Assembly: GCA_947628495.1 (NCBI GenBank)
Contig: CANRAC010000001.1
Location: 1-57,515, forward strand
DNA from: an uncultured Bacilli bacterium
GTDB lineage: Bacteria > Bacillota_I > Bacilli_A > RF39 > UBA660
Length of the DNA: 57,515 nucleotides
Reading direction: 5' to 3'
Shown here: in pieces, positions 17,701 through 38,622 of the stretch
How the letters are laid out: every line of letters begins with the position of its first letter
Position numbering within the stretch: the stretch's first letter is position 1
The notes under the pieces: generated by a model
What the model was told of the DNA's origin: nothing
Databases searched by the model: none
Seen by the model: only the letters and a program-made list of their open reading frames with translations
Made by a program: the position numbers and the translations under genes

Positions 17701-20700
17701 GGAGTGAGGATCGTGATTTAAGTCTAAATAAAAATTCTCGTCGTAGAAATAAAATGACTCAAGAAGAATTAAATAAATATAACCGGGACAGATATATTAC
17801 TAATAAAGAAGCACGCAAGTCTAACTTGAAATACTATATTCAAAAAGGCGTTACTATTAGATTACATCCAGGTGTCGCAGCATTTGTTGAAGCAACTACT
17901 CACGATTTTACAAAATTACCAACTATATTGCAAAATAAAATAGTTTCAGGAAAATTACTTTATAGTGATATTCTTGACTATATTAACACTGCAGCAAATA
18001 TGGATGATTATACATTTAAGGCAATTGCTAAATATGTGTTTAATAATGAACGACTTGCCAAATTGGATGTTAAAACATTACTTAAATTAGAAGACAGCTT
18101 GCATGAATTTGCTATGGCTGCATATTTGACTAAAGAACCTGATAAATATTTAACACCTAAACAAATGGCAGATACTTATAAAGAAGTTATTGCAAATAGT
18201 AGTCCTGAAAAAATCGAATGGGCTCAAAAATTTACGGAAAATATAGTACGAACTGATAGAGGTGGACACAATAAATATATCGAAGCAATACCACAAACAA
18301 ATCAGCTCAATGAGTCATTCTTTAAAAAGTATGATGGCACATTAGCTGGTATGCGTGAAATAAATAATTTGGCTAAAGCTGTTGCTAACATATATGATAC
18401 TCATCAAGTAGCTCGAGAAAATCAAAAAACTGCTACAGTTGAATATGACTATAGCACTACCGTAATTATTAAGAAAAATGACGACATTTCTAAAACGCTA
18501 GATAGTATTGATAAAGTTGAGAAGATGAATACTATTGAAGCTTATTATACAGATGTATTGATTAAACGTTTACAAGAAAAAATGGCAACTGAAGGTATTC
18601 GACCTGATAAAGAAGCAGTAATTGCTTTGAGACGTAAAATCGACGACATGGTTGATGATTTAGATAAATTGTCCGACACTGAACTTAATGCTAAATATCT
18701 AGAAGTATTAAATCAGAATAGTCAACAAAAGAAAAGTCTATCTGCTGTTACTGCTACAGCTACAATGCAAAGAACACCATATGAAGAACAAGAACGTTCA
18801 ATAAAAAATATTAAAGATACGTTTAGAGGCGTTGGTCGTACAATGACTCGTTGGCTTAAAAGTACCGAAGATGCTACTGATACTGAAAGGTTCTATAATA
18901 GATTGCCTGACAATATTAAGAAATGGTTTGACCCAAATAATGGTTATAAGCTAGTTTCAGATTATTATAAACTAAGTAAACAAGAAATTCTCGACTTACA
19001 AAGTAAAATACAAGCCGCTCGTGACCAAGTGAAACATTGGGTGAAAGCTGAAGAAGCTACTAAAGTTGCACTTAAAAAAAGTAAAGAACGTTTGTCAAAA
19101 CTACAAAAAGAATATAAAACATATCGTGAAAAAACTGAGGCTACTTTGAAAGAGAATAAAACCTTACGTCAAAAGGTACAAGTTGAGCACGTAGTTCGTA
19201 TTGAGGGCACTAATGTTACAAGTAGTTCTCCATCAAACCGTGTTGTTGAAGAGATATTAAAGACTAGCTGGAATAAGAAACGTATGGGCGAAGTACAAGA
19301 GCTTGATAATAATATTGAGCATGCAGTGGCTAATGCAAATACGTTCTTTAAAGAAAATGCTAATACTTTATTGTCAGCAAGCACGACAGAACTTGAAGAA
19401 GCTATTGCATTCTTTGCTAATAATACTACTAAGTTGACTGAAGACGAATTTGCTCGATTTAATGCTTTAAGAACTTACTTCTTTGGTTGGGTGCTTGAAG
19501 CAAATAAGAATGGACAAATTACTCTTAATGCAAATCTTAAACAACAAGTAAACAATATTATGCGTAATATGGCATCTAACTATGGTACTGGTTTGGCTGT
19601 GTGGAATAATATTCGACAAAGGTTAAATCCATTAGATAGTATGCGTTCGCAAGATATTGAGGTTGGTGGTATCACCCTTAATGACGACTTAAAAGACAAG
19701 TTGTTTGATGCTATTGAGTCTAATGATGTTGACGTAATGACTAAAACATATGAAGAGATTACTGAGTGGCTTGACGAACAACAATCTAGCAAGAAGGGTG
19801 TATTAAGACGTATAGTCGGCGTGCGCTCAATGGCTATGTTGTCTTCTCCACTTACTTGGTTAAGAAATAAAATGTCTAACTTTATGTTAAAACGTTTAAA
19901 TACATTATCTAGTAAAATAGGTAATGCAATGTTTAAAGGTAAAACTATGGCTGGACAGTTGAAGATGAACCAACAAGTAACTCCTGAAATACAAAAGTTT
20001 ATTACTGACAATATTATTGATAACGGTTTCTTTGACACATTTGTATCTAACTTGTCTAAGTTTAATGTAAGTGATATTGTTGCTAAAAACCAAAATAAGA
20101 TTGCTAAAGGCGAAACTTTGACTAGAGAAGAGATTACTACTCACTTAGTTCTCAAAGCAATTTACAATGAATACTATAACAATAATATGTTTAAGTCTAA
20201 ATTGTTAAATGACTTGCATAAGAATTTAATGAAGGTGATGAGTGATGACTCTTATGTGCGTGAAGCTGCTGTAAGGTATTTTGGTAAGATATTAGCTGAA
20301 AAGAAATATAGTCTCAAAGATGGCAAAATGACTGATGCTATAATGAATGACTTCTCAACTGCTATTGGTCTTGCACTTAATGACTATATGCACTCTGACA
20401 ACTTCTTCAACAATGTTGAACGTTGGTTATCTGATAGAAGTGAGCTTGGTTGGTTTGCTTATAAATTGATAATGCCTTATGCTGCATCATCTTGGAACTG
20501 GTTTAAGGCTGCTATAAGATATAGTCCTATTGGTCTTGGTCGTGCTATTTATAGAATAACTCACCTTGAACAACAGGTGGCTAAAGCCGAAGCAGATTAT
20601 ATCGCAGGTAAATCTAATGTATCTCCTGAACTTACAGAATACTTAATTCGCCGCGACTTAGGCTCTGGTGTAATTGGTACTGTGGCTATGGGACTTGGTG

Positions 20701-21629
20701 CATTACTTGCCGGTCTTGGCTTTATGCGACTTGAGGATGACGACTATGGTAAGCCTAAACTTCACATTGGTAATCTTGTTATTGACGTATCTGACATATT
20801 TGGTAGTTCTAGTGTTCTGGCTGGTGCTGCATTTGTTACCGGTATACAAGAGAAAGGTTGGACTTGGGAAGGTGTGCTAGATGCTTTGAATAGATTAGCA
20901 GATGTGACTATTGACGATTTACCAGTTATGGACATTGTTCAAATGGACATGTACTCTAATGGTTCATTCGATATGGGTCTTAATCAACTTGAGAGTATTG
21001 CATTAAGCTTTATACCTAATATCTTAAGCTGGTTTGCTGGTCTAACTTATACTGGCACTCTGAACAAACAGACATTCTTAGATAGAGCACTAGCTAAAAT
21101 ACCATTTGCCGCTAGATTAGTCGAAAAGAAGGTTGACCCTTATACTGGCAAGACTGACTCTTGGGCTGATTGGGTAGGACGTGCTGTTCCTTACTTCAGC
21201 TGGGATGCTGCATCTCAAAATGAACGTAAGACTACAGCATTAGGTTTAACTAAGACTATGCTTCGTGGACAGTATAAAGTTAATGGTGAAGACTTTAATG
21301 TTACAGGTAAAGACTTGACTGAAATCAATAAGACTTATGGTACTTTAAATGCTGAAGACTTAACTAAGTTCTATGAAAATAAATTAGCTGTTTCTGTTAA
21401 ACAAGAAAATGGCAAATATAAAACAATGACCTATAATCAAATGACCACTAAGCAACGACAGAATGCTGTATCAAGTATTATGCAAAATAATGCTGACCTT
21501 GTTAAGATTATTGCTTGGCTCAAAGCTGGTAATAAATATTACGCATCAAGCACTATTTATAATAAACTTGTTAAGTTAGGTATTACTAAAAATCTATATC
21601 GTGGCTCTAAAGGCTTTGTTAAAGGTTAA
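11757..21629 (+). CDS. giant polyvalent (multidomain, probably virion-packaged/ejected) protein, 3290 aa
   Basis: Single uninterrupted ORF with SD TAGGAGGTAAA-ATG. Has Gly-rich hydrophobic segments near the N-terminus (SGLLSFVGGVVNFFG; SMVISAGVSAIPGGAAIAG) and the C-terminus (VIGTVAMGLGALLAGLGF). Internal HELTH zincin motif, ART-like domain and C5-MTase motifs. Confidence 0.7.
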   Translation: MEVRNKVGSDRSDLYRGSGQLGSTLDYLMYNDPSTYYYQKLRSTNNQYLRDDYWSEAARRGETDQLLASLLSWENLDSNLQAAKKELESFTQTGDEEKDNKKKKELEDKVNHLSNLNSNYLDKVKDYADKGYEDYNTYMLAMTLPLFDDPEKKERVDEASGYNFGSYTDKEWAEKVLDSIFERYDVQIAEAEKENMNWFQKVGATIGSGLLSFVGGVVNFFGDVVNLGEGILNCFFNFSDDATWNDRFLWAFSDESTGFFEQAGDLFNDMAYKVAYESTDMVNMVDAYDAGYRPASWEGMIFGTDRSQGVGASYRTWGKWWSGAFSSIGYMLPSMVISAGVSAIPGGAAIAGKVGTSVFYSGIFSGNISDTVSAAANEGISYKDLNAGEVVSNGLIKAGLQWAVEVALGKILGFSGLDQAIGIGRGAGKFGNLVGGMGGKLGAIGVTALRAGRSMAKEGLEEVLQDMSDSFVDAIYGTTNSKIADLYSSRALETINPMNLLESFVVGALTEGVISSLQGVKYILPKNRAVQTDIDGNVQAMGFFQTLNFNAALETMNDWNNILNDSKATTEAKADVAMKMSAAINTIGSVLKSFGQSDALKVNQILDIYAAGEKKTELLEKANLSNEQYATKLYDSFLTHYAEVERKYVPKPLKTKIKETFAKLADKFKKKGVTEVNNIITNKIDGNDPDVPLKSNNVENFKAALEKLGAEAIIGTNGNIITKSEDIVVVPNKLLETGDLATIIQGVAFDQVQQAVISALSPAQRKMIVRQYEKATGTTCTTEQAVQALLFDKAFYTRILLASEEGHKYNVEALQVLATINKVVQAKASPLLKNGKLANDAYNVLMQKIQKTMQTGLVTYCTKYARIDLGEITNDILSPELKEVIKNHQNTIFSEFVDEGIKDTKTQAPDSERTTRFDTYLQKFSSSLSAEEITELKQKARSTNVNDRVDAYTMLTVLSRNSTSPNATKDKLVYLPTSPDGIIEREHLQNVEKFFGLTWAELISGNYDASKITQEGRNFIQAQYDMSDRASRLACIRDALFNISGGTLTVGMDGSILEIMEKDKFVKDKYLGKEGTKAFRDDLRKGVIKTVADVVKVDLKNSTIKNMKLVRSDTLNGAKGAFVYGDDHISFSAGADVNTFMHELTHVTQYALDVTGQSATGGYAGMFKYMTPEAAKSLDNYIAEKFPLTYNYMVNHKISTYNTIYFMLAGELQANSTLGTHMFDVGFTFDKAGTVLVSPDGKERWNLKANQSDAQKQFRRNVAKARRELSKEIKNQQQANTTENTQTTKATTEAKTETKAASQLDERTTKALDEVVNKNVKKATRATINQVNNATLYKGMNVSKVTEFDNTKGNKKRIVSNAIWLTDNKNVAESYANNKRASATVYDSKVSISNPLVIDAKGQAFSSIMGNITSDQIAVYAQEHGYDSLVIKNVLDIGPYLGNVTNRENSMKPSTDVVIFDKTKAKITNETKYSEDETLDNLDKEYTATKQEDRGQLVGANKKTQDAFNNLSEDAIVQIMNSTSEDVDLTPEEEQYGLELAKALKIRRLTPKEEFALMGVKAEDFARIAANQSDASLYHLAGDSIIVDVLKNIFDKLYTDGYLTKPVRLIEFFAGYGAQNFALDYLGKDYESWKIAEWAVKSIQAYKDAHHSTDTKDYAANMTKSELLDYLVNIGVSLNYNSPAGRESLNTKSLQELKDIYNNIQATHNLVNIQKVTGESLEITDTDSHDYVLTYSFPCQDLSRAGKRAGMHGQDTSTGTQLSLFETIENASQIETQTRSGLLWEVDRILKELYDADKPLPQVLIMENVPEVHNSVNRTDFKQWLSNLQKYGYTNSYTDIKGSDYGIPQKRVRTIMVSTLNNKAFTFPAKQQLKSSMMDYLDKNVDNKYYLTDKQARTFMSYRESFDNNKTTHPINTSIASTLTTKQEKRAQGGNFYSPLVDNDVDLYDLLHPTKNSVQNTIDALNQVKAGQKITASQQKMWSEDRDLSLNKNSRRRNKMTQEELNKYNRDRYITNKEARKSNLKYYIQKGVTIRLHPGVAAFVEATTHDFTKLPTILQNKIVSGKLLYSDILDYINTAANMDDYTFKAIAKYVFNNERLAKLDVKTLLKLEDSLHEFAMAAYLTKEPDKYLTPKQMADTYKEVIANSSPEKIEWAQKFTENIVRTDRGGHNKYIEAIPQTNQLNESFFKKYDGTLAGMREINNLAKAVANIYDTHQVARENQKTATVEYDYSTTVIIKKNDDISKTLDSIDKVEKMNTIEAYYTDVLIKRLQEKMATEGIRPDKEAVIALRRKIDDMVDDLDKLSDTELNAKYLEVLNQNSQQKKSLSAVTATATMQRTPYEEQERSIKNIKDTFRGVGRTMTRWLKSTEDATDTERFYNRLPDNIKKWFDPNNGYKLVSDYYKLSKQEILDLQSKIQAARDQVKHWVKAEEATKVALKKSKERLSKLQKEYKTYREKTEATLKENKTLRQKVQVEHVVRIEGTNVTSSSPSNRVVEEILKTSWNKKRMGEVQELDNNIEHAVANANTFFKENANTLLSASTTELEEAIAFFANNTTKLTEDEFARFNALRTYFFGWVLEANKNGQITLNANLKQQVNNIMRNMASNYGTGLAVWNNIRQRLNPLDSMRSQDIEVGGITLNDDLKDKLFDAIESNDVDVMTKTYEEITEWLDEQQSSKKGVLRRIVGVRSMAMLSSPLTWLRNKMSNFMLKRLNTLSSKIGNAMFKGKTMAGQLKMNQQVTPEIQKFITDNIIDNGFFDTFVSNLSKFNVSDIVAKNQNKIAKGETLTREEITTHLVLKAIYNEYYNNNMFKSKLLNDLHKNLMKVMSDDSYVREAAVRYFGKILAEKKYSLKDGKMTDAIMNDFSTAIGLALNDYMHSDNFFNNVERWLSDRSELGWFAYKLIMPYAASSWNWFKAAIRYSPIGLGRAIYRITHLEQQVAKAEADYIAGKSNVSPELTEYLIRRDLGSGVIGTVAMGLGALLAGLGFMRLEDDDYGKPKLHIGNLVIDVSDIFGSSSVLAGAAFVTGIQEKGWTWEGVLDALNRLADVTIDDLPVMDIVQMDMYSNGSFDMGLNQLESIALSFIPNILSWFAGLTYTGTLNKQTFLDRALAKIPFAARLVEKKVDPYTGKTDSWADWVGRAVPYFSWDAASQNERKTTALGLTKTMLRGQYKVNGEDFNVTGKDLTEINKTYGTLNAEDLTKFYENKLAVSVKQENGKYKTMTYNQMTTKQRQNAVSSIMQNNADLVKIIAWLKAGNKYYASSTIYNKLVKLGITKNLYRGSKGFVKG
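15180..15194 (+). other. HExxH zincin metalloprotease motif (HELTH, aa 1142-1146 of the giant protein)
   Basis: FMHELTHVTQY read directly. The frame was checked against the 11757 start. Confidence 0.5.
15753..16145 (+). other. ART-like (ADP-ribosyltransferase-like, polyvalent-protein type) domain, aa ~1333-1463
   Basis: NATLYKGM...IWLTDNKNVAESYA...SNPLVIDAKG...HGYDSLVIKNV...DVVIFD follows the strand/motif pattern I associate with ART domains of polyvalent proteins. Assigned by eye only. Confidence 0.35.
16395..17575 (+). other. C5-cytosine DNA methyltransferase domain with permuted motif order (IX-X-I-IV-VI-VIII-TRD), aa ~1547-1940
   Basis: Motifs in order: RRLTPKEEFALMGV (IX), LAGDSIIVDVLKNIF (X-like), IEFFAGYGAQ (I), YSFPCQDLSRAGKRAG (IV, catalytic Cys at 16971-16973), IMENVPEV (VI), GIPQKRVRTIMVS (VIII), ASTLTTKQ (TRD-like). 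Confidence 0.75.
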
Positions 21630-28130: not shown

Positions 28131-29417
28131 TTAGATTTTTCTTAATTTTGTTCTTGCTAATTTTTTTACTTTTTCTTTATAGTCTTTAATGCCATCATTT
28201 AATATTAGGTAATTATATGTCTGTAAGTATAACCAAATAATATCTGCAATTTCAACTGCAACGTTTGGGGTACAACCTCTAGTAGTTAATGCTGCAAAAC
28301 CAATTCGTAAACCAGAAGTATTTGCCGGACTTTCATCGTCTTCAGGTAACAAATTTTTATTGGTTGTTATACCAATATCTTCTAGCCTCAACTGAGCTGT
28401 AATACCTAACAAATTAAATGTATCTTTTGTGTTTAATAGTACTAAGTGATTATCAGTATCGGACACATTGCCACCAAGTTCTCTAATACGTTTTGAGAAT
28501 GCTTGCATATTTGCTTTTAACATTTTAATATACTTTTTGAACTCGTCAGTATATGCTTCTTCAAAACAAATTGCTTTTGCTGCAATTGTATTTTCTAATG
28601 GACCACCTTGATAATAAGGGAATACGGCTTGATTAACATATTTAATTAAACGCTCATCATTAGTTAAAATCAAACCACCCCGAGGTCCTCTTAGAGTTTT
28701 GTGAGTTGTAGTGGTCACAATATCTGCATAAGGTATTGGACTCATACATTCACCTGCTGCAACTAGACCTGCAATATGTGCCATATCAACCATCAATTTA
28801 CAGTCATATTTAATTGCTAACTCTTTGAATTTACTAAAGTCAATTTCATAAGGGTATGAAGAGTAGCCAGCCAATATAACGTCAGGTCTATTTGCTTTAA
28901 TTGCTTCTTCTACTAAGTCAAAATGAATATGTCGATCTTCACCTAATTTATAATAACTAAAGTCATACAAATTAGAACTAAAACTTACAGAAGAGCCGTG
29001 AGATAGGTGTCCACCGTGTCCTAACTCCATAGCCAAAATTTTCATTTGTCTATGTACTTTTACTTTGCCTGTGCCACGAACATATAATTTGTGGTCTTCT
29101 TCTAGCATTTTCTCTAAAGCTCGATATGCTTCAGCATTTGCTTGGCTGCCACTATGCGGTTGAACATTTGCAAATTTACAATTAAACAAACGACATGCTC
29201 TATCAATTGCTAATTGCTCAAGTTGGTCTACATTCTCGCAACCACCATAGTATCTATGACCAGGATAGCCTTCAGCATACTTATTTGTTAAACAGCTCGA
29301 CAATGCTTGTCTAACAGATTTACTAGCAAAATTTTCACTAGCGATAAGTTCGAGACATTCATTTTGTCTCTTGTTTTCTGCTTTAATCAATGCAAAAACT
29401 TTCTTATCTTTTTTCAT
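28131..29417 (-). CDS. glyA: serine hydroxymethyltransferase
   Basis: Hallmark PLP-lysine motif VTTTTHKTLRGPRGG, plus ELIASENF and YPGHRYYGGCE. Start placed at the ATG at 29417 (MKKDKKVFALI) after CAGGAGGACTAT. Confidence 0.9.
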   Translation of the reverse strand: MKKDKKVFALIKAENKRQNECLELIASENFASKSVRQALSSCLTNKYAEGYPGHRYYGGCENVDQLEQLAIDRACRLFNCKFANVQPHSGSQANAEAYRALEKMLEEDHKLYVRGTGKVKVHRQMKILAMELGHGGHLSHGSSVSFSSNLYDFSYYKLGEDRHIHFDLVEEAIKANRPDVILAGYSSYPYEIDFSKFKELAIKYDCKLMVDMAHIAGLVAAGECMSPIPYADIVTTTTHKTLRGPRGGLILTNDERLIKYVNQAVFPYYQGGPLENTIAAKAICFEEAYTDEFKKYIKMLKANMQAFSKRIRELGGNVSDTDNHLVLLNTKDTFNLLGITAQLRLEDIGITTNKNLLPEDDESPANTSGLRIGFAALTTRGCTPNVAVEIADIIWLYLQTYNYLILNDGIKDYKEKVKKLARTKLRKI

Positions 29418-29444
29418 ATAGTCCTCCTGTGCACTTAGTAGTGC

Positions 29445-29490
29445 TGGTGAGCCAGGTGAGAATTGCACTCACTATTCACTTGTCTGACTC
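29445..29490 (-). ncRNA. tRNA-like acceptor/T-arm minihelix with encoded ACCA in the glyA 5' leader
   Basis: The - strand reads GAGUCAG-ACAAGUGAAUA-GUGAG-UGCAAUU-CUCAC-CUGGCUC-ACCA. This gives a 7-bp acceptor-like helix (one U.G), a 5-bp stem with a 7-nt T-like loop, then A+CCA. Confidence 0.4.
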
Positions 29491-29493
29491 ATA

Positions 29494-29522
29494 AAAAGTT
29501 TCTAGAAGGTCTAGAAACTTTT
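29494..29522 (-). terminator. perfect 13-bp hairpin, intrinsic terminator (usable on both strands)
   Basis: AAAAGTTTCTAGA-cct-TCTAGAAACTTTT followed by TAT on the - strand. Its core GUUUCUAGA/UCUAGAAAC is followed by UUUUUAU. The + strand also has a T/A-rich tail. Confidence 0.7.
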
Positions 29523-29539
29523 AATATAATATACAGAAG

Positions 29540-29637
29540 AAGACCATCAGACTTCTGTGCATATTTAAAGTATCAAAGGAGGTATACCTTAGATAGTAGA
29601 TTTGTTAAATGGGGTATATTTAACAATGATGGTCTTT
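29540..29637 (-). ncRNA. 98-nt helix-closed RNA module
   Basis: AAGACCAUCA (29637-29628) pairs with UGAUGGUCUU (29549-29540). Inside are a 9-bp hairpin UUGUUAAAU-auacccc-AUUUAACAA and a competing ACAGAAG/CUUCUGU helix. Confidence 0.3.
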
Positions 29638-29659
29638 ACTGACGCGTCAGCTCGTCAGT

Positions 29660-29733
29660 CAGGAAGGTGAGATTTGCACTCACATCTGAGGCGCCTGGTC
29701 GGCCTTATGTTACTACCGTTACACCACTTCCTG
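29660..29733 (-). ncRNA. 74-nt tRNA-like cloverleaf (anticodon position CCA; non-canonical anticodon loop and T-loop)
   Basis: CAGGAAG-UG-GUGU-AACGGUAGUA-ACAU-A-AGGCC-GACCAGG-CGCCU-CAGAU-GUGAG-UGCAAAU-CUCAC-CUUCCUG. Perfect 7-bp acceptor, 4-bp D stem, 4 bp plus C.C in the anticodon stem, 5-nt variable loop, 5-bp T stem. U8, A14, GG and G53-C61 are present. U33 and U55 are absent. Confidence 0.5.
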
Positions 29734-29821: not shown

Positions 29822-29831
29822 CTCTTGAAGT

Positions 29832-29894
29832 GCCTGATAACAGAGTTGCACTGTTAGTGGCCGCTATGGTTGGCCGCCACGCTCTTGCTCAGAC
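29832..29894 (-). ncRNA. 63-nt tRNA-like module lacking a D-arm
   Basis: GUCUGAG...AUCAGGC (6 of 7 bp, one U.G) encloses the long hairpin GUGGCGGC-caaccaua-GCGGCCAC and the T-arm-like AACAG-UGCAACU-CUGUU. Confidence 0.3.
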
Positions 29895-29897
29895 ATG

Positions 29898-29919
29898 TAG
29901 GTGCTTTAAGGTGCACCTA
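29898..29919 (-). other. hairpin just after the SSB-like gene stop
   Basis: UAGGUGC-accuuaaa-GCACCUA, 7 bp, with no U-tract. Possibly a processing or stability element rather than a terminator. Confidence 0.3.
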
Positions 29920-29932
29920 AACCTGTGGTAAA

Positions 29933-30469
29933 TTATTCTCCAAATTCGTCGCCAGACAAATGAGAAGTCAATGGTTCGCCATCACGTGTTTTTAATACAT
30001 TGTTCAACACTGCACTAACACCGCGACGTCCATCTCCACTGTAAGCGAAGAATGTCATAGAAACTCTACCATACATACCGCTGTATACTTCAGTTGGGTC
30101 AATAATTTCTTGCCTGTCGGCATTCAAAACTTTTGGTTTGAACTTAGTAGACAAACGAATATAATAATTACCTTTATATTCAGGGTATTTATTATTTATT
30201 AGTTCTCCTAAGTCGTCAACTGCTGTATCACCATCTTTAAATGTGTGATTAACGTTTGTAGGTACTCTACCACCAAAGTGTTTTTGTGCCCCTGCTTCAG
30301 CTGCTGCTTGAATTGCAGCTTTAATAGCATTTACAGTTTTGGTATCAGTTTTTGGGATGATAGCCGTAACTGAGTATTTTGGCGTATCGCCTTCTTTCAT
30401 AGCTTTTGGTTCAAATACGTTTACGAATGACAATCTGCATTCACCTGTAACAACTTGATTATTGTTCAT
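29933..30469 (-). CDS. ssDNA-binding protein, DUF2815 type
   Basis: N-terminal GECRLSFVNVFEPKA...KYSVTAIIPKTD and C-terminal YSGMYGRVSMTFFAY...GVSAVLNNV match the DUF2815 pattern. Paired with the adjacent DUF2800 nuclease, as is usual. Confidence 0.7.
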   Translation of the reverse strand: MNNNQVVTGECRLSFVNVFEPKAMKEGDTPKYSVTAIIPKTDTKTVNAIKAAIQAAAEAGAQKHFGGRVPTNVNHTFKDGDTAVDDLGELINNKYPEYKGNYYIRLSTKFKPKVLNADRQEIIDPTEVYSGMYGRVSMTFFAYSGDGRRGVSAVLNNVLKTRDGEPLTSHLSGDEFGE

Positions 30470-32443: not shown

Positions 32444-32850
32444 TTACCTGTGCTCCCAAACGCTCCAGAGCCGCGCTCTTCACCCATATCTTCAGTATAA
32501 TCTGCATAAATACAAGGTGTAATAACTAAATAGCCTATTCTGTCACCTTCGTGATAAACAAACTGATTATCAGTAGGATTATTGACAATCATATGAATTT
32601 CACCTTTATAACCTGCATCAATCGCACAATGGTGAACATGAATACCTTGTTTTGCTATTGAAGTTCTCTCTTGTATATATGCATTTAGTCCATCAGGCAA
32701 ATCAATGCCAAAACCTAACGGACATACTTGTACTGAATGTGGTGGCACTATACCATTATATGGCATATAAATATCAGCACCTGTATCATTAAAATGTTTT
32801 CTCTCTGGTAAAACTGCTTTGTCACTAAACCGTATGAAGTGTATCTTCAT
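32440..32850 (-). CDS. dut: dUTPase
   Basis: DTGADIYMP (motif I), CAIDAGYKGEI (motif III), RGSGAFGSTGK (motif V). Confidence 0.9.
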   Translation of the reverse strand: MKIHFIRFSDKAVLPERKHFNDTGADIYMPYNGIVPPHSVQVCPLGFGIDLPDGLNAYIQERTSIAKQGIHVHHCAIDAGYKGEIHMIVNNPTDNQFVYHEGDRIGYLVITPCIYADYTEDMGEERGSGAFGSTGK

Positions 32851-33547
32851 TTTTAACCTCCTGTGGTTCTACATACTTATGACCACAACTAAATTTGCCT
32901 TCTTTACAATAAGAATTAACACAGTTTGGTAGACATAAATCTGCCCAAGCATTACCGCATTGTGTTCTAATCTCATGTAAAATCAATTCACAAATGTGTT
33001 GTACTTCACGAGTATTACGATTACATAACCTAATAGACAACATATACTGCCAAGCTGGGAAATTGCCATGAATCACTAAGCACTTCTTTAAACTCTGTGG
33101 TAGTAAATAACCTGCTCTATCTCGGTCGACTCCGTTGTCATACATGGTTATGTAGGCATTATGAATATCTTGACATGCTTGTTTATAAATTTCTTCTTGC
33201 TCAGGTGTTAAACCTTCTGGAACAACATATGGACTTTGTACTTTTGTAAACTCACTATATTGTGTCGAAGTAGAAACAAATGTTAACCTTGTTGCATGTG
33301 TTCTTAATTGTGAAACAGCTTTTGTTGACAAACCATAAATAGCAACTGTTAATTCACACATTCTAAAGATTGTTGAATGTGGCAAACTCAATAATTGTTT
33401 CGATGGTTGTTTGTAGACATTGTCATTATATAATTTCAACAAGTCATCCAAACTACTTATCTCTGAGCCACGCTGAGTTAACTTTGCTAAGAATAGTGGA
33501 GTGCCATCAAGGTTGTGTTTCAAGATAGCAACTTTAATATCTTGCAT
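32825..33547 (-). CDS. thyX: FAD-dependent thymidylate synthase ThyX-like, with degenerate ThyX motif
   Basis: PHSTIFRMCELTVAIYGLSTKAVSQL and ARYLLPQSL...NFPAWQYMLSIRLCNRNTREVQ follow the ThyX fold pattern. The signature RHRxxSxxxxSxRY is replaced by RTHATRLTFVSTSTQY. Confidence 0.65.
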   Translation of the reverse strand: MQDIKVAILKHNLDGTPLFLAKLTQRGSEISSLDDLLKLYNDNVYKQPSKQLLSLPHSTIFRMCELTVAIYGLSTKAVSQLRTHATRLTFVSTSTQYSEFTKVQSPYVVPEGLTPEQEEIYKQACQDIHNAYITMYDNGVDRDRAGYLLPQSLKKCLVIHGNFPAWQYMLSIRLCNRNTREVQHICELILHEIRTQCGNAWADLCLPNCVNSYCKEGKFSCGHKYVEPQEVKNEDTLHTV

Positions 33548-33570
33548 ATTGACTCCTTTTATTTTATTTT

Positions 33571-33588
33571 GATATTATATTATATGCG
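33571..33588 (-). promoter_or_regulatory. promoter-like CGCATATAATATAATATC (double TATAAT), 23 nt upstream of the thyX ATG
   Basis: Shares the 14-mer ATATAATATAATAT with the elements at 39801-39818 (-) and 44991-45008 (+). Confidence 0.45.
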
Positions 33589-33713
33589 AAAAGATAATAA
33601 TAATTTCACTTTATTTTTATCTTTTTATAATTATTTTTTACTTTTATATAAAATTGAAATAAATTACTTAAAAATTTAATTTTTAGAGATTTTTCAAATT
33701 TATTTTTAAATAA

Positions 33714-33835
33714 AAATATCACTATTTTTAATTTTAGGATAGATTTGATATTCTTTAAATATCTTGATTGATATATTTTTTAAAGAATATTTTAATCAAT
33801 AAGAAATGTCCTAAATTAAATCAATAGTGATATTT
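33714..33835. promoter_or_regulatory. nested imperfect inverted repeats in a 296-bp extremely AT-rich intergenic region
   Basis: AAATATCACTAT (33714-33725) / ATAGTGATATTT (33824-33835). ATATTCTTTAAA (33748-33759) / TTTAAAGAATAT (33779-33790). TTTTAGGAT (33732-33740) faces GTCCTAAAT (33808-33816). Confidence 0.5.
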
Positions 33836-33843
33836 GATTTTAG

Positions 33844-34377
33844 CTATTTGCTATTATTTTTATACTCAATATAGCGAAGCTTGATACGATTTATTAGTCG
33901 TTGCAATTCGCTGCGACCTACATGCATTTCATTGATAATATACAACTTAGTTTTATCACTAAGAAATGCCTGTGCAACTGCATATTCAGCTGGTGACAGA
34001 GTAGACAAGAAACACTCAAAGTCCAAGTCATGCTCTAAGTCACCAATTTCTTCAATGTAAGTCTCAGTATCATAATTAGGTGAATCAACAATATATCGAT
34101 TATCACTTCGCAAAAACATGAGTATCTCATTTTGTATACATTTGCTTGCATAAGTAGCAAAGGTAAAGTTCATTTCAGGCTTATAAGTCCTGATTGCCTT
34201 TAATAGTCCAATAGCACCTTGTTGCTCACAATCATCACTAAAGATATTTAATTTAAAGAGGACATGCTTAATTAAGCCATAATTCTCAGTCAGAAGTTCT
34301 TCTTCGTTTTCGACTCTTTTCCAAGCGCCTAGCTTTTTGCTTCTCAGCTCTTTCGAGCTTCTTCTGCTGCTTGTCAT
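33844..34377 (-). CDS. sigma-70 family RNA polymerase sigma factor (sporulation-sigma-like)
   Basis: Region 2: GAIGLLKAIRTYKPEMNFTFATYASKCIQNEILMFLR. Region 4 HTH: LSPAEYAVAQAFLSDKTKLYIINEMHVGRSELQRLINRIK. Confidence 0.8.
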   Translation of the reverse strand: MTSSRRSSKELRSKKLGAWKRVENEEELLTENYGLIKHVLFKLNIFSDDCEQQGAIGLLKAIRTYKPEMNFTFATYASKCIQNEILMFLRSDNRYIVDSPNYDTETYIEEIGDLEHDLDFECFLSTLSPAEYAVAQAFLSDKTKLYIINEMHVGRSELQRLINRIKLRYIEYKNNSK

Positions 34378-34588
34378 GCGCCTTCCATTCCTTATTAAAT
34401 TCTCGTATTTCTTTACGAGTTGGAATAGTATCTTCTAAGTTATACATACATTGTGTATCGAAGCAAGCACCTTCATACAACACATCCTCTTTGGTCGTGC
34501 CCTCTGGGTAGATAACAAGACCATATTTACACATTTGACAATATTTCATTACCGGGTCAATGCAACGAGTAGGACGTTCTTCCGTCAT
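34286..34588 (-). CDS. Cys-rich small protein with a basic C-terminus
   Basis: Start at the ATG at 34588 after TAGGAGGTGCTT. Cys residues in CIDPVMKYCQMC...CFDTQC. The Lys/Arg tail overlaps the sigma gene start by 92 nt in another frame. Confidence 0.55.
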   Translation of the reverse strand: MTEERPTRCIDPVMKYCQMCKYGLVIYPEGTTKEDVLYEGACFDTQCMYNLEDTIPTRKEIREFNKEWKAHDKQQKKLERAEKQKARRLEKSRKRRRTSD

Positions 34589-34597
34589 AAGCACCTC

Positions 34598-34849
34598 CTA
34601 GTCCCAACCATAGCAACCACAATAATAACTATCATAGTCACTTAACGGTTTGTATTCAAAGAATGCTAAATTAAGATTACTATCTTCTATTCTGCCACAC
34701 TCAAAACAACGTGCTTTACGACGAATTAACAACTCTTTCATTGCTGAGTTAGTTCTAGCAATCTCACAACAATTACAAATAACACATACTGGGTTATTGT
34801 CTTGGTCTACAGCATTTGCTGTGTGTCCACATTTCATTAAAGGAACCAT
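34598..34849 (-). CDS. zinc-ribbon-like small protein
   Basis: 83 aa with KCGH...PVCVICNCC...CFECG...YYCGCYGWD. SD AGGAGGTTAAT-ATG. Confidence 0.55.
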   Translation of the reverse strand: MVPLMKCGHTANAVDQDNNPVCVICNCCEIARTNSAMKELLIRRKARCFECGRIEDSNLNLAFFEYKPLSDYDSYYCGCYGWD

Positions 34850-34858
34850 ATTAACCTC

Positions 34859-36118
34859 CTAATAAATTGATGTCGTCTCTTTGTCTGGACGAAACTTTTT
34901 AAGGCGAGGAAATCGAAGTGATTTTTTATCACCGCCTTTTGATTGACTTATATCGAAGTATGCAACTTCTATTATTTTGCCAATAAATGCTTCTGGATTG
35001 TCTGCTCCTCTTATCTCGTCAGACATACCAGCAACATTAACTCTTATTGTATGGTTATCGTCTTCACAGATAAATGAACCAATCATACCTTCATATTTAC
35101 CTTTACCCTCATTCCAGCCAACTATTCTCAAGTCCATTGTCTGAGTCTTCTTGTACTTTAAAAGTGCATCAGTTCTTTTACCACTTTGATAACCTGCATC
35201 TGGGTCGCGAAGAATAAGTCCTTCTCCACCTTGATTAACAATAAAATCTAATAACTCATCTAATTGCCAATTGTACTCTACGTTAGGGTATAACCACAAT
35301 TTGTCAAGTGTCTTTAATATTGTGCAATCTTTGCCAATATCTTCGTCAATATACTCATAAAGTATTCTACGGCGGTCTTCATAACTCAACTTAGGCTCAA
35401 TGATGTCATAGATATAATAGTGAAGTTGTGTTTTATCTGTAAACTTCCCATTTATTGCTCCAGAAGTTTTATTAAAGTCTCTAGAACCCGCATGGCCTAA
35501 AGTCATTACTTCACCATCAAAGATTAAATCAATAGGTGCCCAGTCCATATCAAAGTTAACCTTTAAAGGTTTGCCGGACCTAGCAAAGAATTCCCATTTA
35601 AGTTCGTCATTATTAAAGCGAGCAATGCATCTGTTGCCGTCTAGTTTCTCTTGAACATAATAATATTGTTCGTGAAACGAGTCAGGATACCTTTTAGCCA
35701 ACATTGGAGATATATTGGTTATCATATTATTCTTATTTGAATAACCTAATCTCCACTCTCGATTAACTAGTTGTCTTATAAAGTCTCGAGCCTCTACTGG
35801 AGTATACACGCATGCTAAGAATATGTCGTCATATGTGTTTGACAATGTTTTTAAGAAATACTCAATGAACCCTTTTATCGAGTAATTGTCATAAGTCCCA
35901 CGATAGATATTAGTATCATAATCTATATATGTGAAACCTACTTTATGCCTACCAGCGAGGACCTCAAAACAATAATCAAGGTCCTCTAGCAGGCCGGGAC
36001 ACGAAGAGAACCTACAAGTGAAGTTTTTCACCAAGTCCTCTTTTGCTAATTTGCCGGAAGTTCTCTCTAGGTCAATAAATAGTTCTTCTATGAAATTACA
36101 ACGTTCTACTAAGTCCAT
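34859..36118 (-). CDS. ATP-dependent DNA ligase
   Basis: Motif I VQEKLDGNRC, motif III LIFDGEVM, motif IV GGEGLILRD, motif V ALLKYKK. Confidence 0.9.
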   Translation of the reverse strand: MDLVERCNFIEELFIDLERTSGKLAKEDLVKNFTCRFSSCPGLLEDLDYCFEVLAGRHKVGFTYIDYDTNIYRGTYDNYSIKGFIEYFLKTLSNTYDDIFLACVYTPVEARDFIRQLVNREWRLGYSNKNNMITNISPMLAKRYPDSFHEQYYYVQEKLDGNRCIARFNNDELKWEFFARSGKPLKVNFDMDWAPIDLIFDGEVMTLGHAGSRDFNKTSGAINGKFTDKTQLHYYIYDIIEPKLSYEDRRRILYEYIDEDIGKDCTILKTLDKLWLYPNVEYNWQLDELLDFIVNQGGEGLILRDPDAGYQSGKRTDALLKYKKTQTMDLRIVGWNEGKGKYEGMIGSFICEDDNHTIRVNVAGMSDEIRGADNPEAFIGKIIEVAYFDISQSKGGDKKSLRFPRLKKFRPDKETTSIY

Positions 36119-36130
36119 TTTTACCTCCTA

Positions 36131-36709
36131 CTACTTAGTGTTTAAATATGCGAAATACAACAATTCGCCAGTTATCTCGTTAATAGACAACCTATTAGAC
36201 CAATCATAAATTGCAAAGTTATATTTATTTGTATTTGCCTGAACAACAGACATAGCAAAATCATATACTTTAGACAATTCTTTATGTCGTTCTAATGCAA
36301 CAGGATTGTCGTCACCACGAGCATTCATTGCCTCTTCAGCATTCTTTGTTCTACAATAAACAATAAATATTCTTTTATTATACTTTTTAATAAAGTCAAT
36401 AAGTTTATTTATTGTTGTAACTGACTTGAAATTATCAAAGATACGATAAACTATATCACTGATAGGTCCTCGGTCCATAATGTGTATGTCACCATCAGTT
36501 GCCATCATTTTCAATCTGTGATATAATTCTTTTTCTGTTACCCTATCTCGCTTTGCCGGATGAGTGGACACCCTGGTCTCAGCAACCGGGTCTATTATTG
36601 TTTGCCTGCTTATATTTAATGCAGCTCTTTTCTCTTCTAGTGCTTTATATAAGTGATTTGCTAAAGTTGTTTTACCTGAACCATCTGGTCCTTCTAAATA
36701 AATAATCAT
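36131..36709 (-). CDS. tmk: thymidylate (dNMP) kinase
   Basis: P-loop MIIYLEGPDGSGKTTL and the DR motif MDRGPISDIVY. Confidence 0.75.
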   Translation of the reverse strand: MIIYLEGPDGSGKTTLANHLYKALEEKRAALNISRQTIIDPVAETRVSTHPAKRDRVTEKELYHRLKMMATDGDIHIMDRGPISDIVYRIFDNFKSVTTINKLIDFIKKYNKRIFIVYCRTKNAEEAMNARGDDNPVALERHKELSKVYDFAMSVVQANTNKYNFAIYDWSNRLSINEITGELLYFAYLNTK

Positions 36710-36883
36710 TTAGTCGCCTCCATTCATAAACATAGTGATTTCTGTAATTAACCTCATAGCCTTAATGACAATCATAACTACACACATAACAGTTAGAATG
36801 ATTGCTAACCATAAAGGCAAGAAGATTGCCTGAGACGCAAATAGCGTCCAGATAAAGAAAATAAGAATACCATATGCTATCAT
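36710..36883 (-). CDS. small two-TM peptide (57 aa), not in the ORF track
   Basis: Product MIAYGILIFFIWTLFASQAIFLPLWLAIILTVMCVVMIVIKAMRLITEITMFMNGGD. SD AAGGAGGATGAAGC-ATG. Its stop abuts the tmk ATG (TAAATG). Confidence 0.6.
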   Translation of the reverse strand: MIAYGILIFFIWTLFASQAIFLPLWLAIILTVMCVVMIVIKAMRLITEITMFMNGGD

Positions 36884-37035
36884 GCTTCATCCTCCTTCGA
36901 CAAAAATAATCTTATACCAAATATCACTGCATTAACTATCACTAGCAAACCAGCGACAAGAGATATAACAACTTTTAACCAGATTGGGGCACTGGTAAAC
37001 CAAGTTAAGATTAAAATCAAAATGTATGCTATCAT
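36880..37035 (-). CDS. small two-TM peptide (51 aa), paralogue of the next gene, not in the ORF track
   Basis: Product MIAYILILILTWFTSAPIWLKVVISLVAGLLVIVNAVIFGIRLFLSKEDEA. SD GGAGGCAAA-ATG. ATGA overlaps on both sides. Confidence 0.6.
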   Translation of the reverse strand: MIAYILILILTWFTSAPIWLKVVISLVAGLLVIVNAVIFGIRLFLSKEDEA

Positions 37036-37814
37036 TTTGCCTCCTTACTATAAAATTTTGTTACTAGACTATTCTCGAGTCTATCATACTTGACTGGGTA
37101 CAAGAGACCCAGCTGATTAGCCCATATATCATTAGTCAACTGAATATAATCTTCAGTGTTCCATTTGTCTTTGTGCAACTGACTGAAGTATATTCGAGTA
37201 GCTCCTTGCTCGATTAGTTTATGCAAACAATCAAAACAAGGCTCTAACAAAGAGAGAACTGTATATGGACCATATTTGTTATCTATCTCGTCTTTGTATT
37301 CTAAGTATCTAATATATCTCATTAGCACTTCTTCGGCATGTAGCATCTCACCATCAATCTCTTGATTAAACGAATATGCAACTACTTTATAACCTGAACA
37401 TATAAGACAAGAGGTTTTAATATCGGGGTCAGTAGAGTATTTAGCAACTTCGATAAGGTCTTTATAGTTATCTGACAGTATGTCATAAGTTTTATCGAGT
37501 ACACCAAACCCTATGTCTATCTCTGGAACAAATATAACCGGTAGGCCATGTTCTCGTGCCGACCGAATTAGCTGCAGCTTATGTGACTTCCAGGTCGGTT
37601 GTGATTTGTAGTTTTTCATTGTTAAAACTAAGAACTGTGAATATGAATCAAGAGCATCGTCCCAAAACTCAACAATTTTACCCATTGCTGTGTTTTGGTC
37701 ACTAATGACATTATCTTCTGTCAAGCGAAGTTTGTCATTTTTATTAAAGTTATAATAATTACCATAATAGAATGCATCAATAACTTTTGTTGCGTTGTTA
37801 ATTCTCAAGCCCAT
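37032..37814 (-). CDS. dCMP/cytidine deaminase-fold protein with an ~140-aa N-terminal extension
   Basis: Zn-binding and catalytic motifs LHAEE...LEPCFDCLHKL (HAE + PCxxC). Start placed at the ATG at 37814 (MGLRIN) after GTGGAGGAGCTAT. Confidence 0.75.
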   Translation of the reverse strand: MGLRINNATKVIDAFYYGNYYNFNKNDKLRLTEDNVISDQNTAMGKIVEFWDDALDSYSQFLVLTMKNYKSQPTWKSHKLQLIRSAREHGLPVIFVPEIDIGFGVLDKTYDILSDNYKDLIEVAKYSTDPDIKTSCLICSGYKVVAYSFNQEIDGEMLHAEEVLMRYIRYLEYKDEIDNKYGPYTVLSLLEPCFDCLHKLIEQGATRIYFSQLHKDKWNTEDYIQLTNDIWANQLGLLYPVKYDRLENSLVTKFYSKEAK

Positions 37815-38622
37815 ATAGCTCCTCCACTTTATGCTCACTTCTCCATTTCAACAATCTACGATATAACGACAATGGTAGATAGTTTGGTGTATAGTTTATT
37901 ATTTGGTCAATCTCACGCTCGCTAAACGTTTTACGTAATAACGCTTTGGCACAGGACAATAGATTACGATACTCTAAGCTCTCTTCATTTGGTGCTTCTT
38001 CAGCAGGTATTATATCTGACATAAATAAAGCTTTACCATCAGCATCTACTGCCAATATTGTGTCTAGTGACTGAACATTGTCATTTGACATATTTAATCT
38101 TTTACGATTAAACCTTAAGTCACACAAAACAGAATTGTATATTGACTTTTTCAAATAGGACAAATTACCCATATAAATAGTGCCCTTCTTGTAGAGAGAC
38201 AATAAGGTTATGTAAACCTCACTCAATGCATCGCTGAAGGTCCAGTCGAATGAGTGAGAAATATCTGATGCAACTTTCTTGCACCAATTGTCCTTAGTAT
38301 CTAACCATTGTTCAAATGGTGGATTGACAAACACGTTTGTGTATTTATACGATTTTGCAGTATCACACTTAAATAAAAATAGTTCCCAGGCCTTGCCGAG
38401 CTCTTCTGCCGATACCTCAATTCCGCTATATGAGTTACGTTTAATCAAATAAAGATTAAGAACCTGCATTCTTGGCCCATTCTTTATTGACTCTTTTAGT
38501 GAGAACAAATAACCAATTATTGCATCATTGCTCACTATATCAGCATAATTATCACGCTCCCAGTCCTGGAAACTATTTACATTATTAAGTATGAATTGTT
38601 TAATATAAAACTTATTTTTCAT
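37798..38622 (-). CDS. hypothetical protein, possibly a divergent sigma-like factor
   Basis: 274 aa. ALSEVYITLLSLYKKG...NLSYLKKSIYNSVLCDLRFNRKRL resembles sigma region 2. This is a weak, by-eye call. Confidence 0.25.
   Translation of the reverse strand: MKNKFYIKQFILNNVNSFQDWERDNYADIVSNDAIIGYLFSLKESIKNGPRMQVLNLYLIKRNSYSGIEVSAEELGKAWELFLFKCDTAKSYKYTNVFVNPPFEQWLDTKDNWCKKVASDISHSFDWTFSDALSEVYITLLSLYKKGTIYMGNLSYLKKSIYNSVLCDLRFNRKRLNMSNDNVQSLDTILAVDADGKALFMSDIIPAEEAPNEESLEYRNLLSCAKALLRKTFSEREIDQIINYTPNYLPLSLYRRLLKWRSEHKVEELYGLEN

Follow-up and report, generated by a model that had tools for sequence, protein, structure and literature searches.

What a short, tRNA-shaped sequence does between two protein genes is the question raised by a locus on contig CANRAC010000001.1 (57,515 nt; this whole stretch is called the window in the following). 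The window represents a phage, probably of Firmicutes, in which a gap of 515 nt separates the gene of an Enc34/gp2.5-type ssDNA-binding protein (SSB) from an SHMT (glyA-like) gene. This gap holds three tRNA-derived elements, TL1 (tentative), TL2 and TL3. The last of these, located upstream of the SHMT Shine-Dalgarno (SD) sequence, is a minihelix of acceptor stem, T arm and CCA end. TL3 is of tRNA ancestry, and its structure recurs in related phages and is conserved there through compensatory change. As far as sequence comparison can tell, it plausibly represents a phage t-element-like tRNA top half with a role in RNA processing or as a tRNA mimic.

TL3 comprises 46 nt, in which an acceptor stem of 7 bp is stacked on a T arm of 5 bp. 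All seven acceptor pairs are formed, the single non-Watson-Crick pair being U4.G69, and the 3' acceptor strand abuts the T stem, resulting in an in-register coaxial stack of 12 bp (7/7 and 5/5 pairs). In the T loop UGCAAUU, positions U54, C56, A57 and A58 are present, while position 55 is G and not U. G29490 pairs with C29449 (G1:C72), U29491 occupies position -1, and A73-CCA is encoded. RNAfold returned the minihelix as minimum free energy (MFE) and as centroid structure, both for the isolated sequence and in its context; the folding energy by itself is unremarkable (z-score about -1.3). The 27 nt between the ACCA and the ATG of the SHMT gene (29417) are made up of GCAC-UACUAA-GUGC, AC, AGGAGG and ACUAU. 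An earlier, sequence-only reading had described a minihelix with a 7-bp acceptor (one U.G), a T-arm hairpin, an 11-nt linker and an encoded ACCA, followed after 27 nt including a small hairpin and AGGAGG by the start of glyA. Both descriptions were confirmed from the sequence, and the downstream open reading frame (ORF) was identified as SHMT by PF00464.

The structure is real and far beyond chance, since strict scans of the window and of 689 kb of related-phage DNA yield such modules only at tRNAs or in one slot downstream of SSB, and shuffled sequences yield none with CCA. The scanner used for this purpose demanded a T loop of the pattern T[TG][CG][AG]A.., a T stem of 5 bp and a 3' acceptor strand adjoining the T stem, and it searched the 8-130 nt upstream for the complementary acceptor 7-mer. 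A strict match had to show 5/5 T-stem pairs and 7/7 acceptor pairs, at least six of the latter being Watson-Crick pairs. In the 57.5-kb window, exclusively the TL2 cloverleaf and the TL3 minihelix passed. Markov shuffles gave 0.4 strict matches per window (both strands), and a strict module with CCA occurred in none of 60 Markov shuffles. For comparison, about 60 loci with an Enc34-type SSB were taken from IMG/VR, ENA/Logan contigs and JGI metagenomes. In the slot, taken as the 0-700 nt that follow the SSB gene, 20 strict top-half modules were counted in 45 kb. The remaining 689 kb of these loci yielded five strict matches, all of them genuine tRNAs called by ARAGORN, and thus no non-tRNA module.

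The T arm itself points to a tRNA. Its core GTGAGTGCAAWTCTCACCT occurs exactly twice in the window (29472-29454 and 29683-29665; chance expectation 0.02), and the second occurrence is the T arm of TL2. The two copies are 19-mers with 18 of 19 identical bases and lie 211 nt apart; the paralogy previously proposed for both T arms is therefore real, but the agreement of 19 out of 20 positions given for it is not. Furthermore, the T arm of TL3 (GUGAG-UGCAAWU-CUCAC) is found without any difference in bona fide tRNAs for Tyr, Lys, Cys, Met, Ser and Thr on 17 IMG/VR contigs (L001-L017), and one permuted transfer-messenger RNA (tmRNA; L004) shares the 19-mer and a similar 3' end. The T arm of TL3 is consequently a real, if unusual (G55), tRNA T arm. 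Position 55 of tRNAs is universally U or pseudouridine. G55 is found in all three T loops of the gap (29467-29461, 29678-29672 and 29844-29838, reverse strand), which read UGCAA... The presence of the identical T arm in bona fide tRNAs of 17 unrelated phage contigs suggests that this loop is a recurrent phage-specific variant. A genome-wide regulatory repeat was rejected, as the 19-mer occurs just twice in the window.

None of the known RNA classes considered accounts for TL3. A canonical decoding tRNA was rejected because the D arm and an anticodon stem-loop with U33 are absent, the 11-nt linker standing in their place, and because neither ARAGORN nor RF00005 matched. With default settings, ARAGORN called no tRNA and no tmRNA in the window, TL3 and TL2 included. 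When introns were allowed and the thresholds lowered, it returned an implausible 'tRNA-Glu with intron' across the terminator-like hairpin and TL3, which was dismissed as an artefact of the relaxed settings. A tmRNA, one-piece or permuted, was discarded because position 3:70 of TL3 is G3-C70 and not G3.U70 and because ARAGORN and Rfam detected no tmRNA. No Rfam covariance model matched at gathering score across the whole window, so that any curated family (T-box, riboswitch, YrlA and others) was likewise rejected; at E<=10 there was no RF00005/tRNA match at TL3 or TL2, and chance-level matches to unrelated families were all that appeared. A likeness of GCUCACCA in TL3 to a sequence of L018 was traced to the loop and stem of an unrelated covarying hairpin.

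The closest relatives share the gene order DUF2800-SSB-gap-SHMT-126 aa-helicase-primase, and two ENA contigs carry the identical phage (SSB-SHMT gap 100% identical), which is present in the samples ERZ27249283 and ERZ27249530. By BLAST, the intergenic sequences of the relatives were unalignable. Despite this, the slot follows a common grammar: the SSB stop codon, a covarying hairpin, 3-6 nt ending in U (typically UUUAU), and a tRNA-type element. The position of the post-SSB hairpin is conserved in L039-L066, and the U-rich 3-6 nt always separate it from the tRNA or tRNA-like element. Its stems covary, with the pairs AGGUGC/GCACCU, AGGCGU/ACGCCU, GAGGAGU/ACUCCUC, GCAGUUGU/ACAACUGC and GAGUCUGG/CCAGACUC. 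No close cultured relative emerged. A protein-seeded SHMT search of viral contigs had no match, the seed peptides being too divergent, and the annotated phage collection held no relative of the window phage at the DNA level. The best SSB matches, at most 47% identical, belong to gut phages of the Ca. Heliusvirales without a comparable intergenic region.

The element in the slot takes several forms. In some relatives it is a canonical tRNA, namely tRNA-Met (L055, L058), tRNA-Gln (L053) or tRNA-Trp (L051). Others carry cloverleaves with an aberrant anticodon arm, either with a loop of 3 nt (L018 clade) or with loops of 8 nt (L046, L040_2), or cloverleaves with a palindromic stub as anticodon arm (L061, L063). 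In a further form, a long AU-rich linker interrupts the top half; it measures 74 nt in L041 and about 85 nt in both L062_2 and L053_2, and it is longest in L049 (187 nt) and L050 (227 nt). Finally, minihelices with a linker of 9-21 nt occur in L052, L048, L060 and the L039/L040/L051 group. Two details of these forms were recorded in addition. In the split top halves (L049:1350-1610, L050:2071-2370, L041:2360-2470, L062:~1000-1110, L053:1258-1400), the 5' acceptor, sometimes together with the D arm, is separated from T arm, 3' acceptor and CCA by 74-230 nt, and neither the length nor the structure of these linkers suffices for a group I intron. For the 8-nt anticodon loops (L046:1399-1480, L040:722-806), ARAGORN with lowered threshold reported 4-base anticodons (taac, aagt); these tRNA-likes may resemble frameshift suppressors or may simply not decode.

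The gene following the slot also varies, being SHMT, a VRR-NUC-like nuclease gene or a DNA polymerase gene, and relatives in which SSB abuts the polymerase gene have no slot element. Because slot elements precede VRR-NUC-like or DNA polymerase genes in relatives, they are associated with the gene boundary after SSB and not with SHMT, to which the link is incidental. An SHMT-specific leader was rejected for the same reason. Of the processing element tied to SHMT/glyA that had been envisaged for this locus, the tRNA-like element stands, as it recurs in relatives, whereas the specificity for SHMT does not.

Evidence that the top half is the part under selection comes from pairwise comparisons of elements. 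L046 and L052 have the acceptor GUUGGAG, the GCCA end, the post-CCA hairpin GUACUU..AAGUAU and the downstream SHMT gene in common. The linker of L046 measures 45 nt and that of the L052 minihelix 10 nt, 35 nt of D and anticodon arm having been lost in the latter, and their T stems (GCAGG/CCUGC versus GUAGG/CCUAC) differ by a compensatory pair change. TL3 and L062_2, whose SSB proteins are about 69% identical, agree in the 5' acceptor GAGUCAG and in the discriminator A; the 3' strands are CUGGCUC and CUGACUC, and the T stems GUGAG/CUCAC and GUGGG/CCCAC are again compensatory. With L041, TL3 shares the T stem, ACCA, the abutting hairpin, SD sequence and SHMT; both strands of its acceptor have moved by one register, and pairing is still complete. 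In the L018 clade, the tRNA-like element is invariant except for two loop positions, while the nearby intergenic sequence varies. The enrichment in the slot and these position-anchored orthologues constitute independent evidence for selection on the top half. Acceptor sequences and discriminators, on the other hand, differ freely between relatives, which argues for a reader of these elements that goes by shape and not by identity, a property of RNase P, RNase Z and the CCA-adding enzyme. As a separate observation, a small hairpin GUGGC-RGCUC-RYCAC lies ~85-105 nt after the tRNA-like element in L018, L019, L042, L043 and L047, with compensatory changes among these five close relatives.

These comparisons bear directly on the possibility that TL3 is a non-functional relic in a hotspot of tRNA gain, duplication and decay, which arose by a young internal deletion or as a partial duplicate of the TL2 T arm. 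Such an origin would agree with the real tRNAs that the slot holds in some relatives and the visibly degenerate ones in others. It would also agree with the adjacent TL2, which looks like a decaying tRNA-Trp (A33, C.C mismatch, no CCA), with the 18/19 identity of the TL2 and TL3 T arms, suggestive of a recent duplication or gene conversion, and with the odd G55 common to all three elements of the window. However, decay should affect all arms alike, whereas the top half is intact in the 20 strict elements and the lower half varies or is lost. Deletions leading to a perfect minihelix occurred independently in the window phage, in L052, in the L039/L040/L051 group, in L048 and in L060, and the encoded RCCA and U(-1) were kept. 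Moreover, L062 retains the acceptor sequence of TL3, and L062 and L041 retain the layout, with compensatory changes amid otherwise unalignable intergenic DNA. A relic is thus considered unlikely, if still worth keeping in mind.

The surroundings of the slot elements are patterned as well. The nucleotide at -1 is U in nearly all of them, and an upstream hairpin ends 1-8 nt before 19 of 26 elements (38% of random positions). The same layout with an upstream hairpin is seen at the canonical tRNA-Leu, tRNA-Trp and tRNA-Met genes of relatives. As the hairpin leaves no room for a promoter, these canonical tRNAs must arise by read-through and cleavage, after which the hairpin forms the 3' terminus of the RNA upstream. 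In the SHMT subgroup (TL3, L041, L040_2, L046, L052), the CCA is succeeded after 0-1 nt by a short hairpin, and then by an A-rich spacer and the SD sequence; the post-CCA hairpins of L041, L040, L046 and L052 have the same position as that of TL3 and different sequences. The tRNA-Leu of L018 likewise possesses a post-CCA hairpin, an A-rich spacer and an SD sequence, and the order hairpin-tRNA-CCA-hairpin-SD also surrounds ordinary tRNAs elsewhere in these phages.

With about even confidence, TL3 can be regarded as a tRNA top half that is retained as a substrate of RNase P and of the 3'-end processing enzymes and would punctuate a polycistronic mRNA in the manner of a t-element. It possesses the features known from minimal bacterial RNase P substrates, namely a coaxial stack of 7+5 bp, a T loop, RCCA, U(-1) and G1:C72. 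It is also placed between cistrons, with which it would be co-transcribed, and its structure is conserved in relatives. According to this processing model, a tRNA gene would have lost its D and anticodon arms, and the part read by end-processing enzymes would have been kept under selection. TL3 would be transcribed within the replication-module mRNA by read-through of the hairpin located 3 nt upstream, and the host RNase P would cleave at U29491|G29490. A protective hairpin would remain at the 3' end of the upstream RNA. The tightly folded minihelix would then form the start of the SHMT mRNA. If a second cut followed at or close to the CCA, the mRNA would instead start with the GCAC...GUGC hairpin, which is a candidate for the 5'-terminal hairpin of the processed SHMT mRNA. 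A fully paired 5' end of this kind would resist 5'-end-dependent decay in Firmicutes. The comparative data lend indirect and partial support to the earlier suggestion of a processing site, read by RNase P and other enzymes of tRNA ends, that defines or protects the 5' end of the glyA mRNA.

Several observations weigh against the processing model. The upstream hairpin resembles an intrinsic terminator (12-bp stem, U tract), so that transcription entering TL3 from upstream may be poor. A search for a sigma-70-like promoter between this hairpin and the SHMT ATG was negative; promoter prediction around TL3 is limited in that the promoters of the phage are probably not of host consensus, because it has a sigma-70 region-2 protein of its own. 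In Bacillus-type systems, RNase Z is inhibited by a CCA that is encoded, and exact cleavage behind the CCA is thus not certain. In the T loop, G55 stands in place of U55. Downstream hairpins are weakly enriched overall (9 of 26 elements, 20% of random positions). In favour of the model, all seven acceptor pairs covary, with changes on both sides, across 34 elements, in which 96.6% of the top-half cells are in standard pairs (53.5% in shuffles, 41-50% in slid controls), but this set was chosen for pairing, so that the figure is descriptive and partly restates the selection criterion. Close relatives of TL3 itself are identical copies of the same phage only.

Alternatively, the released TL3 could itself be the functional product, a trans-acting, CCA-ended mimic of the tRNA top half. 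It could serve as a decoy or sponge for host factors or defence toxins directed at the 3' CCA ends or acceptor stems of tRNAs, or as a substrate of aminoacylation or CCA-end chemistry exploited by the phage. Minihelices are substrates of several tRNA-binding enzymes. The exact RCCA end, the 12-bp stack and the T loop persist when everything else is deleted, and several copies exist per phage (three in the window, two each in L040, L051, L053 and L062), as would suit a mimic. Yet CCA is absent from many slot elements (TL1, TL2, L039, L048, L060-L063, L018 clade). The acceptors and discriminators are not conserved, which leaves no single synthetase identity, and TL3 lacks G3.U70. Neither an enzyme related to tRNA nor a recognisable anti-defence gene was detected in the vicinity, and nothing in the data points to a target. 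This mimicry is accordingly judged quite improbable as the function of TL3. In a more general form that embraces both roles, it may tentatively be proposed that a widespread lineage of gut Firmicutes phages has stripped operon tRNA genes, repeatedly and in independent events, to top halves in split, armless or bare CCA-minihelix form. These would constitute a dedicated RNA class, selected either as t-elements for the host RNase P, which punctuate and switch on replication-module mRNAs, or as abundant CCA-ended mimics that occupy host enzymes or defence toxins; the proposal is possible, with the doubts somewhat prevailing.

The features of the gap and of the genes bordering it are compiled in Table 1.

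Table 1. Coordinates of TL3, its parts and the neighbouring features in the window.
Feature	Position	Strand	Description
TL3 minihelix	29445..29490	-	MFE structure; passes strict top-half scan; structural orthologues in L041 and L062
TL3 5' acceptor	29490-29484	-	GAGUCAG
TL3 linker	29483-29473	-	ACAAGUGAAUA, 11 nt, in place of D and anticodon arms
TL3 T arm	29472-29456	-	GUGAG 29472-29468, loop UGCAAUU 29467-29461, CUCAC 29460-29456
TL3 3' acceptor	29455-29449	-	CUGGCUC
TL3 encoded tail	29448-29445	-	ACCA; A73 = 29448, CCA = 29447-29445
Small hairpin	29431..29444	-	GCAC-UACUAA-GUGC; begins directly after TL3 CCA
SHMT Shine-Dalgarno sequence	29423..29428	-	AGGAGG, 5 nt before ATG 29417
SHMT (glyA-like) gene	28131..29417	-	PF00464, E 5e-123
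Terminator-like hairpin	29494..29522	-	AAAAGUUUCUAG-ACCUU-CUAGAAACUUUU, then UAU; 12 bp, A/U-rich; ends 3 nt before TL3 G1
Pyrimidine-rich tract	29533..29547	-	AUGGUCUUC..CUGU; predicted pairing with ACAGGAGGACUAU (29430-29418), SD sequestered
TL2, degenerate tRNA-Trp-like cloverleaf	29656..29733	-	Acceptor CAGGAAG/CUUCCUG, D arm, tail A-CUG
TL1, tentative tRNA-like element	29828..29894	-	GUCUGAG-32 nt-AACAG-UGCAACU-CUGUU-AUCAGGC-A-CUU
Post-SSB hairpin	29899..29918	-	AGGUGC-ACCUUAAA-GCACCU; immediately after SSB stop codon
Enc34/gp2.5-type SSB gene	29933..30469	-	PF10991, E 3e-54; synteny

TL2 has the T arm GUGAG-UGCAAAU-CUCAC and the anticodon loop GACCAGG, in which the CCA anticodon is kept. 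Its defects are A33, G37/G38, a C.C mismatch in the anticodon stem, G55 and the missing CCA tail. ARAGORN called it tRNA-Trp(CCA) only at the 80% threshold (-ps80), and it resembles the real tRNA-Trp genes of L039 and L051. TL1 has 6/7 acceptor pairs, a relaxed level at which chance matches are common; its support comes from its position, as it starts at the canonical place of the slot, just after the post-SSB hairpin, like the first element of the relatives. The terminator-like hairpin (29522-29494) carries a U tract and matches the upstream hairpin of the relatives' tRNA-likes. This hairpin, the cluster of three elements and the degeneracy of the TL2 cloverleaf had escaped the earlier reading.

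The direct repeat formed by the T arms of TL2 and TL3 raises the possibility that TL3 is an attP core or the remnant of an attachment site, the 19-bp repeat being an att duplication. Where integration has taken place in a tRNA gene, the direct repeats typically left behind are a complete and a partial copy of the tRNA (PMC9897764), a signature that the shared 19-nt repeat would fit, and the distantly related phages of the Ca. Heliusvirales are mostly temperate (PMC11283538). However, no integrase or recombinase was found in Pfam scans of the window ORFs of at least 100 aa other than the two largest (6782-10531 and 11757-21629). The repeats lie just 211 nt apart and inside the replication module, and TL3 has its own complementary 5' acceptor strand, unlike an att fragment. 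The 3' half of TL3 did not occur in the genomes of 185,579 species, each represented by one genome. Its last 18 nt gave 66 matches, which is about the number expected by chance, and none was in the context of a T arm. An attachment site is therefore exceedingly improbable and largely refuted, and an origin of TL3 from a host tRNA was rejected together with it.

The fold of the region around TL3 leads to another alternative, namely a cis structural element for SHMT that acts without cleavage, in which a four-way fold sets read-through or translation initiation. The MFE structure of 29560-29400 (z = -4.0; 0 of 200 shuffles fold as well) is a four-way junction. In it, a predicted long-range helix of 13 bp (29547-29533/29430-29418) encloses three hairpins, i.e. 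the terminator-like hairpin, TL3 and the small hairpin, and buries AGGAGG. In addition, pyrimidine-rich tracts similar to the 3' end of 16S rRNA recur in the linkers of relatives. Against this stands the long-range helix itself, which contains several G.U pairs and is not demonstrably conserved. Such a structure would also leave the tRNA top half with T loop, RCCA and U(-1) unexplained, as well as the occurrence of the elements before other genes and after SSB. A role of this kind is very improbable. The same fold can be combined with the processing model. Because the SD sequence is open in a fold starting at G29490 and buried in the MFE structure of 29560-29400, a cut at the 5' end of TL3 might, speculatively, detach the pyrimidine tract 29547-29533 and unmask the SHMT ribosome-binding site, which would be a possible translational switch.

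Tracts resembling an anti-SD sequence (ACCUCCUUU / AUCACCUCCU; in the window at 29583-29575, reverse strand) are identical to the 3' end of 16S rRNA. They recur on the RNA strand in linkers or loops beside the tRNA-likes of L045, L049, L051 and L040, and their opposite strand would read as strong SD sequences. Small antisense ORFs behind these reverse-complement SD motifs were considered and dropped, as an ORF was found in L049 only and no consistent feature emerged.

TL3 is surrounded by a replication and nucleotide-metabolism module on the reverse strand, which comprises ThyX, dUTPase, a DUF2800 exonuclease, SSB, the 515-nt gap, SHMT and a VRR-NUC-like protein of 126 aa, followed by an SNF2-type helicase, primase and DNA polymerase. 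A sigma factor, DNA ligase, a kinase and dCMP deaminase are encoded farther upstream. The N-terminus of SHMT matches that of the relatives. A sigma-70 region-2 protein of the phage's own is encoded at 33844-34377 (reverse strand), and ThyX, dUTPase, dCMP deaminase and the kinase (32825-38622, reverse strand) form, together with SHMT, a full set for dTMP supply. The structural arm contains a single ORF of 3290 aa (11757-21629, forward strand).

If TL3 is processed as proposed, it would be a natural case in a bacterial virus of tRNA punctuation by degenerate tRNA look-alikes, a mechanism already established for organelles and for some eukaryotic and viral transcripts. This would explain why many 'tRNA-shaped' phage sequences are missed by tRNA finders, and it would show a tRNA gene switching its job from decoding to RNA processing. 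The arrangement of hairpin, minihelix-CCA and hairpin would be a compact, portable module with which mRNA ends could be programmed in Firmicutes. With forms that range from the full tRNA down to the minihelix, this one slot offers a rare natural experiment that bears on the parts of a tRNA needed by the processing machinery. Literature searches on minihelix or tRNA-like processing elements of phages yielded no description of such an element, and the paper on the Ca. Heliusvirales (PMC11283538) makes no mention of tRNAs.

Among known systems, the ordinary phage tRNA genes have the same T arm, occupy the same slot in relatives and show the same flanking grammar as TL3, which in contrast also lacks a variable region and cannot decode. 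The tRNA-like domain of tmRNA resembles TL3 in combining acceptor stem, T arm and CCA without an anticodon arm; TL3 differs from it by the absence of G3.U70, of an mRNA-like domain and of a tag ORF. Synthetic acceptor/T-arm minihelices with a 12-bp stack, T loop and 3' RCCA are substrates of bacterial RNase P, for which a cut at -1/+1 is expected. These are laboratory constructs, whereas TL3 has the same architecture in a natural and genomically encoded form, with G55 and a bulge-like linker of 11 nt. In the tRNA-like-miRNA (microRNA) transcripts of the gammaherpesvirus MHV68, a tRNA-like module recruits RNase P and RNase Z. The mascRNA of MALAT1 is likewise a tRNA-like module within a longer transcript that recruits both enzymes and thereby creates neighbouring RNA ends (PMC4919922). 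Both differ from TL3 in their eukaryotic or viral Pol II/III setting, their full cloverleaf-like folds and the post-transcriptional addition of CCA. Bacterial RNase P, too, cleaves some mRNAs and phage regulatory RNAs, for example the C4 precursor of P1/P7, a phage antisense RNA matured by the host enzyme via a tRNA-like helix of the acceptor type (PMC4919922). C4 is a trans-acting antisense repressor, whereas for TL3 there is no evidence of an antisense target, and the two show no sequence relationship.

The closest functional parallel of TL3 appears to be the t-elements of plant mitochondria together with mitochondrial tRNA punctuation. The t-elements direct the cuts by RNase P and RNase Z that form mRNA ends (PMC1920247). 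Like the family of TL3, they are non-canonical tRNA-likes with conserved T arm and acceptor at gene boundaries in polycistronic transcripts. They are derived from tRNA genes, as are the slot elements, and in both cases canonical tRNAs and degenerate look-alikes are interchangeable. In contrast to the t-elements, the slot elements occur in phages and not in an organelle, and their CCA is often genome-encoded; some of them are, in addition, reduced to a bare minihelix with a linker of 9-21 nt.

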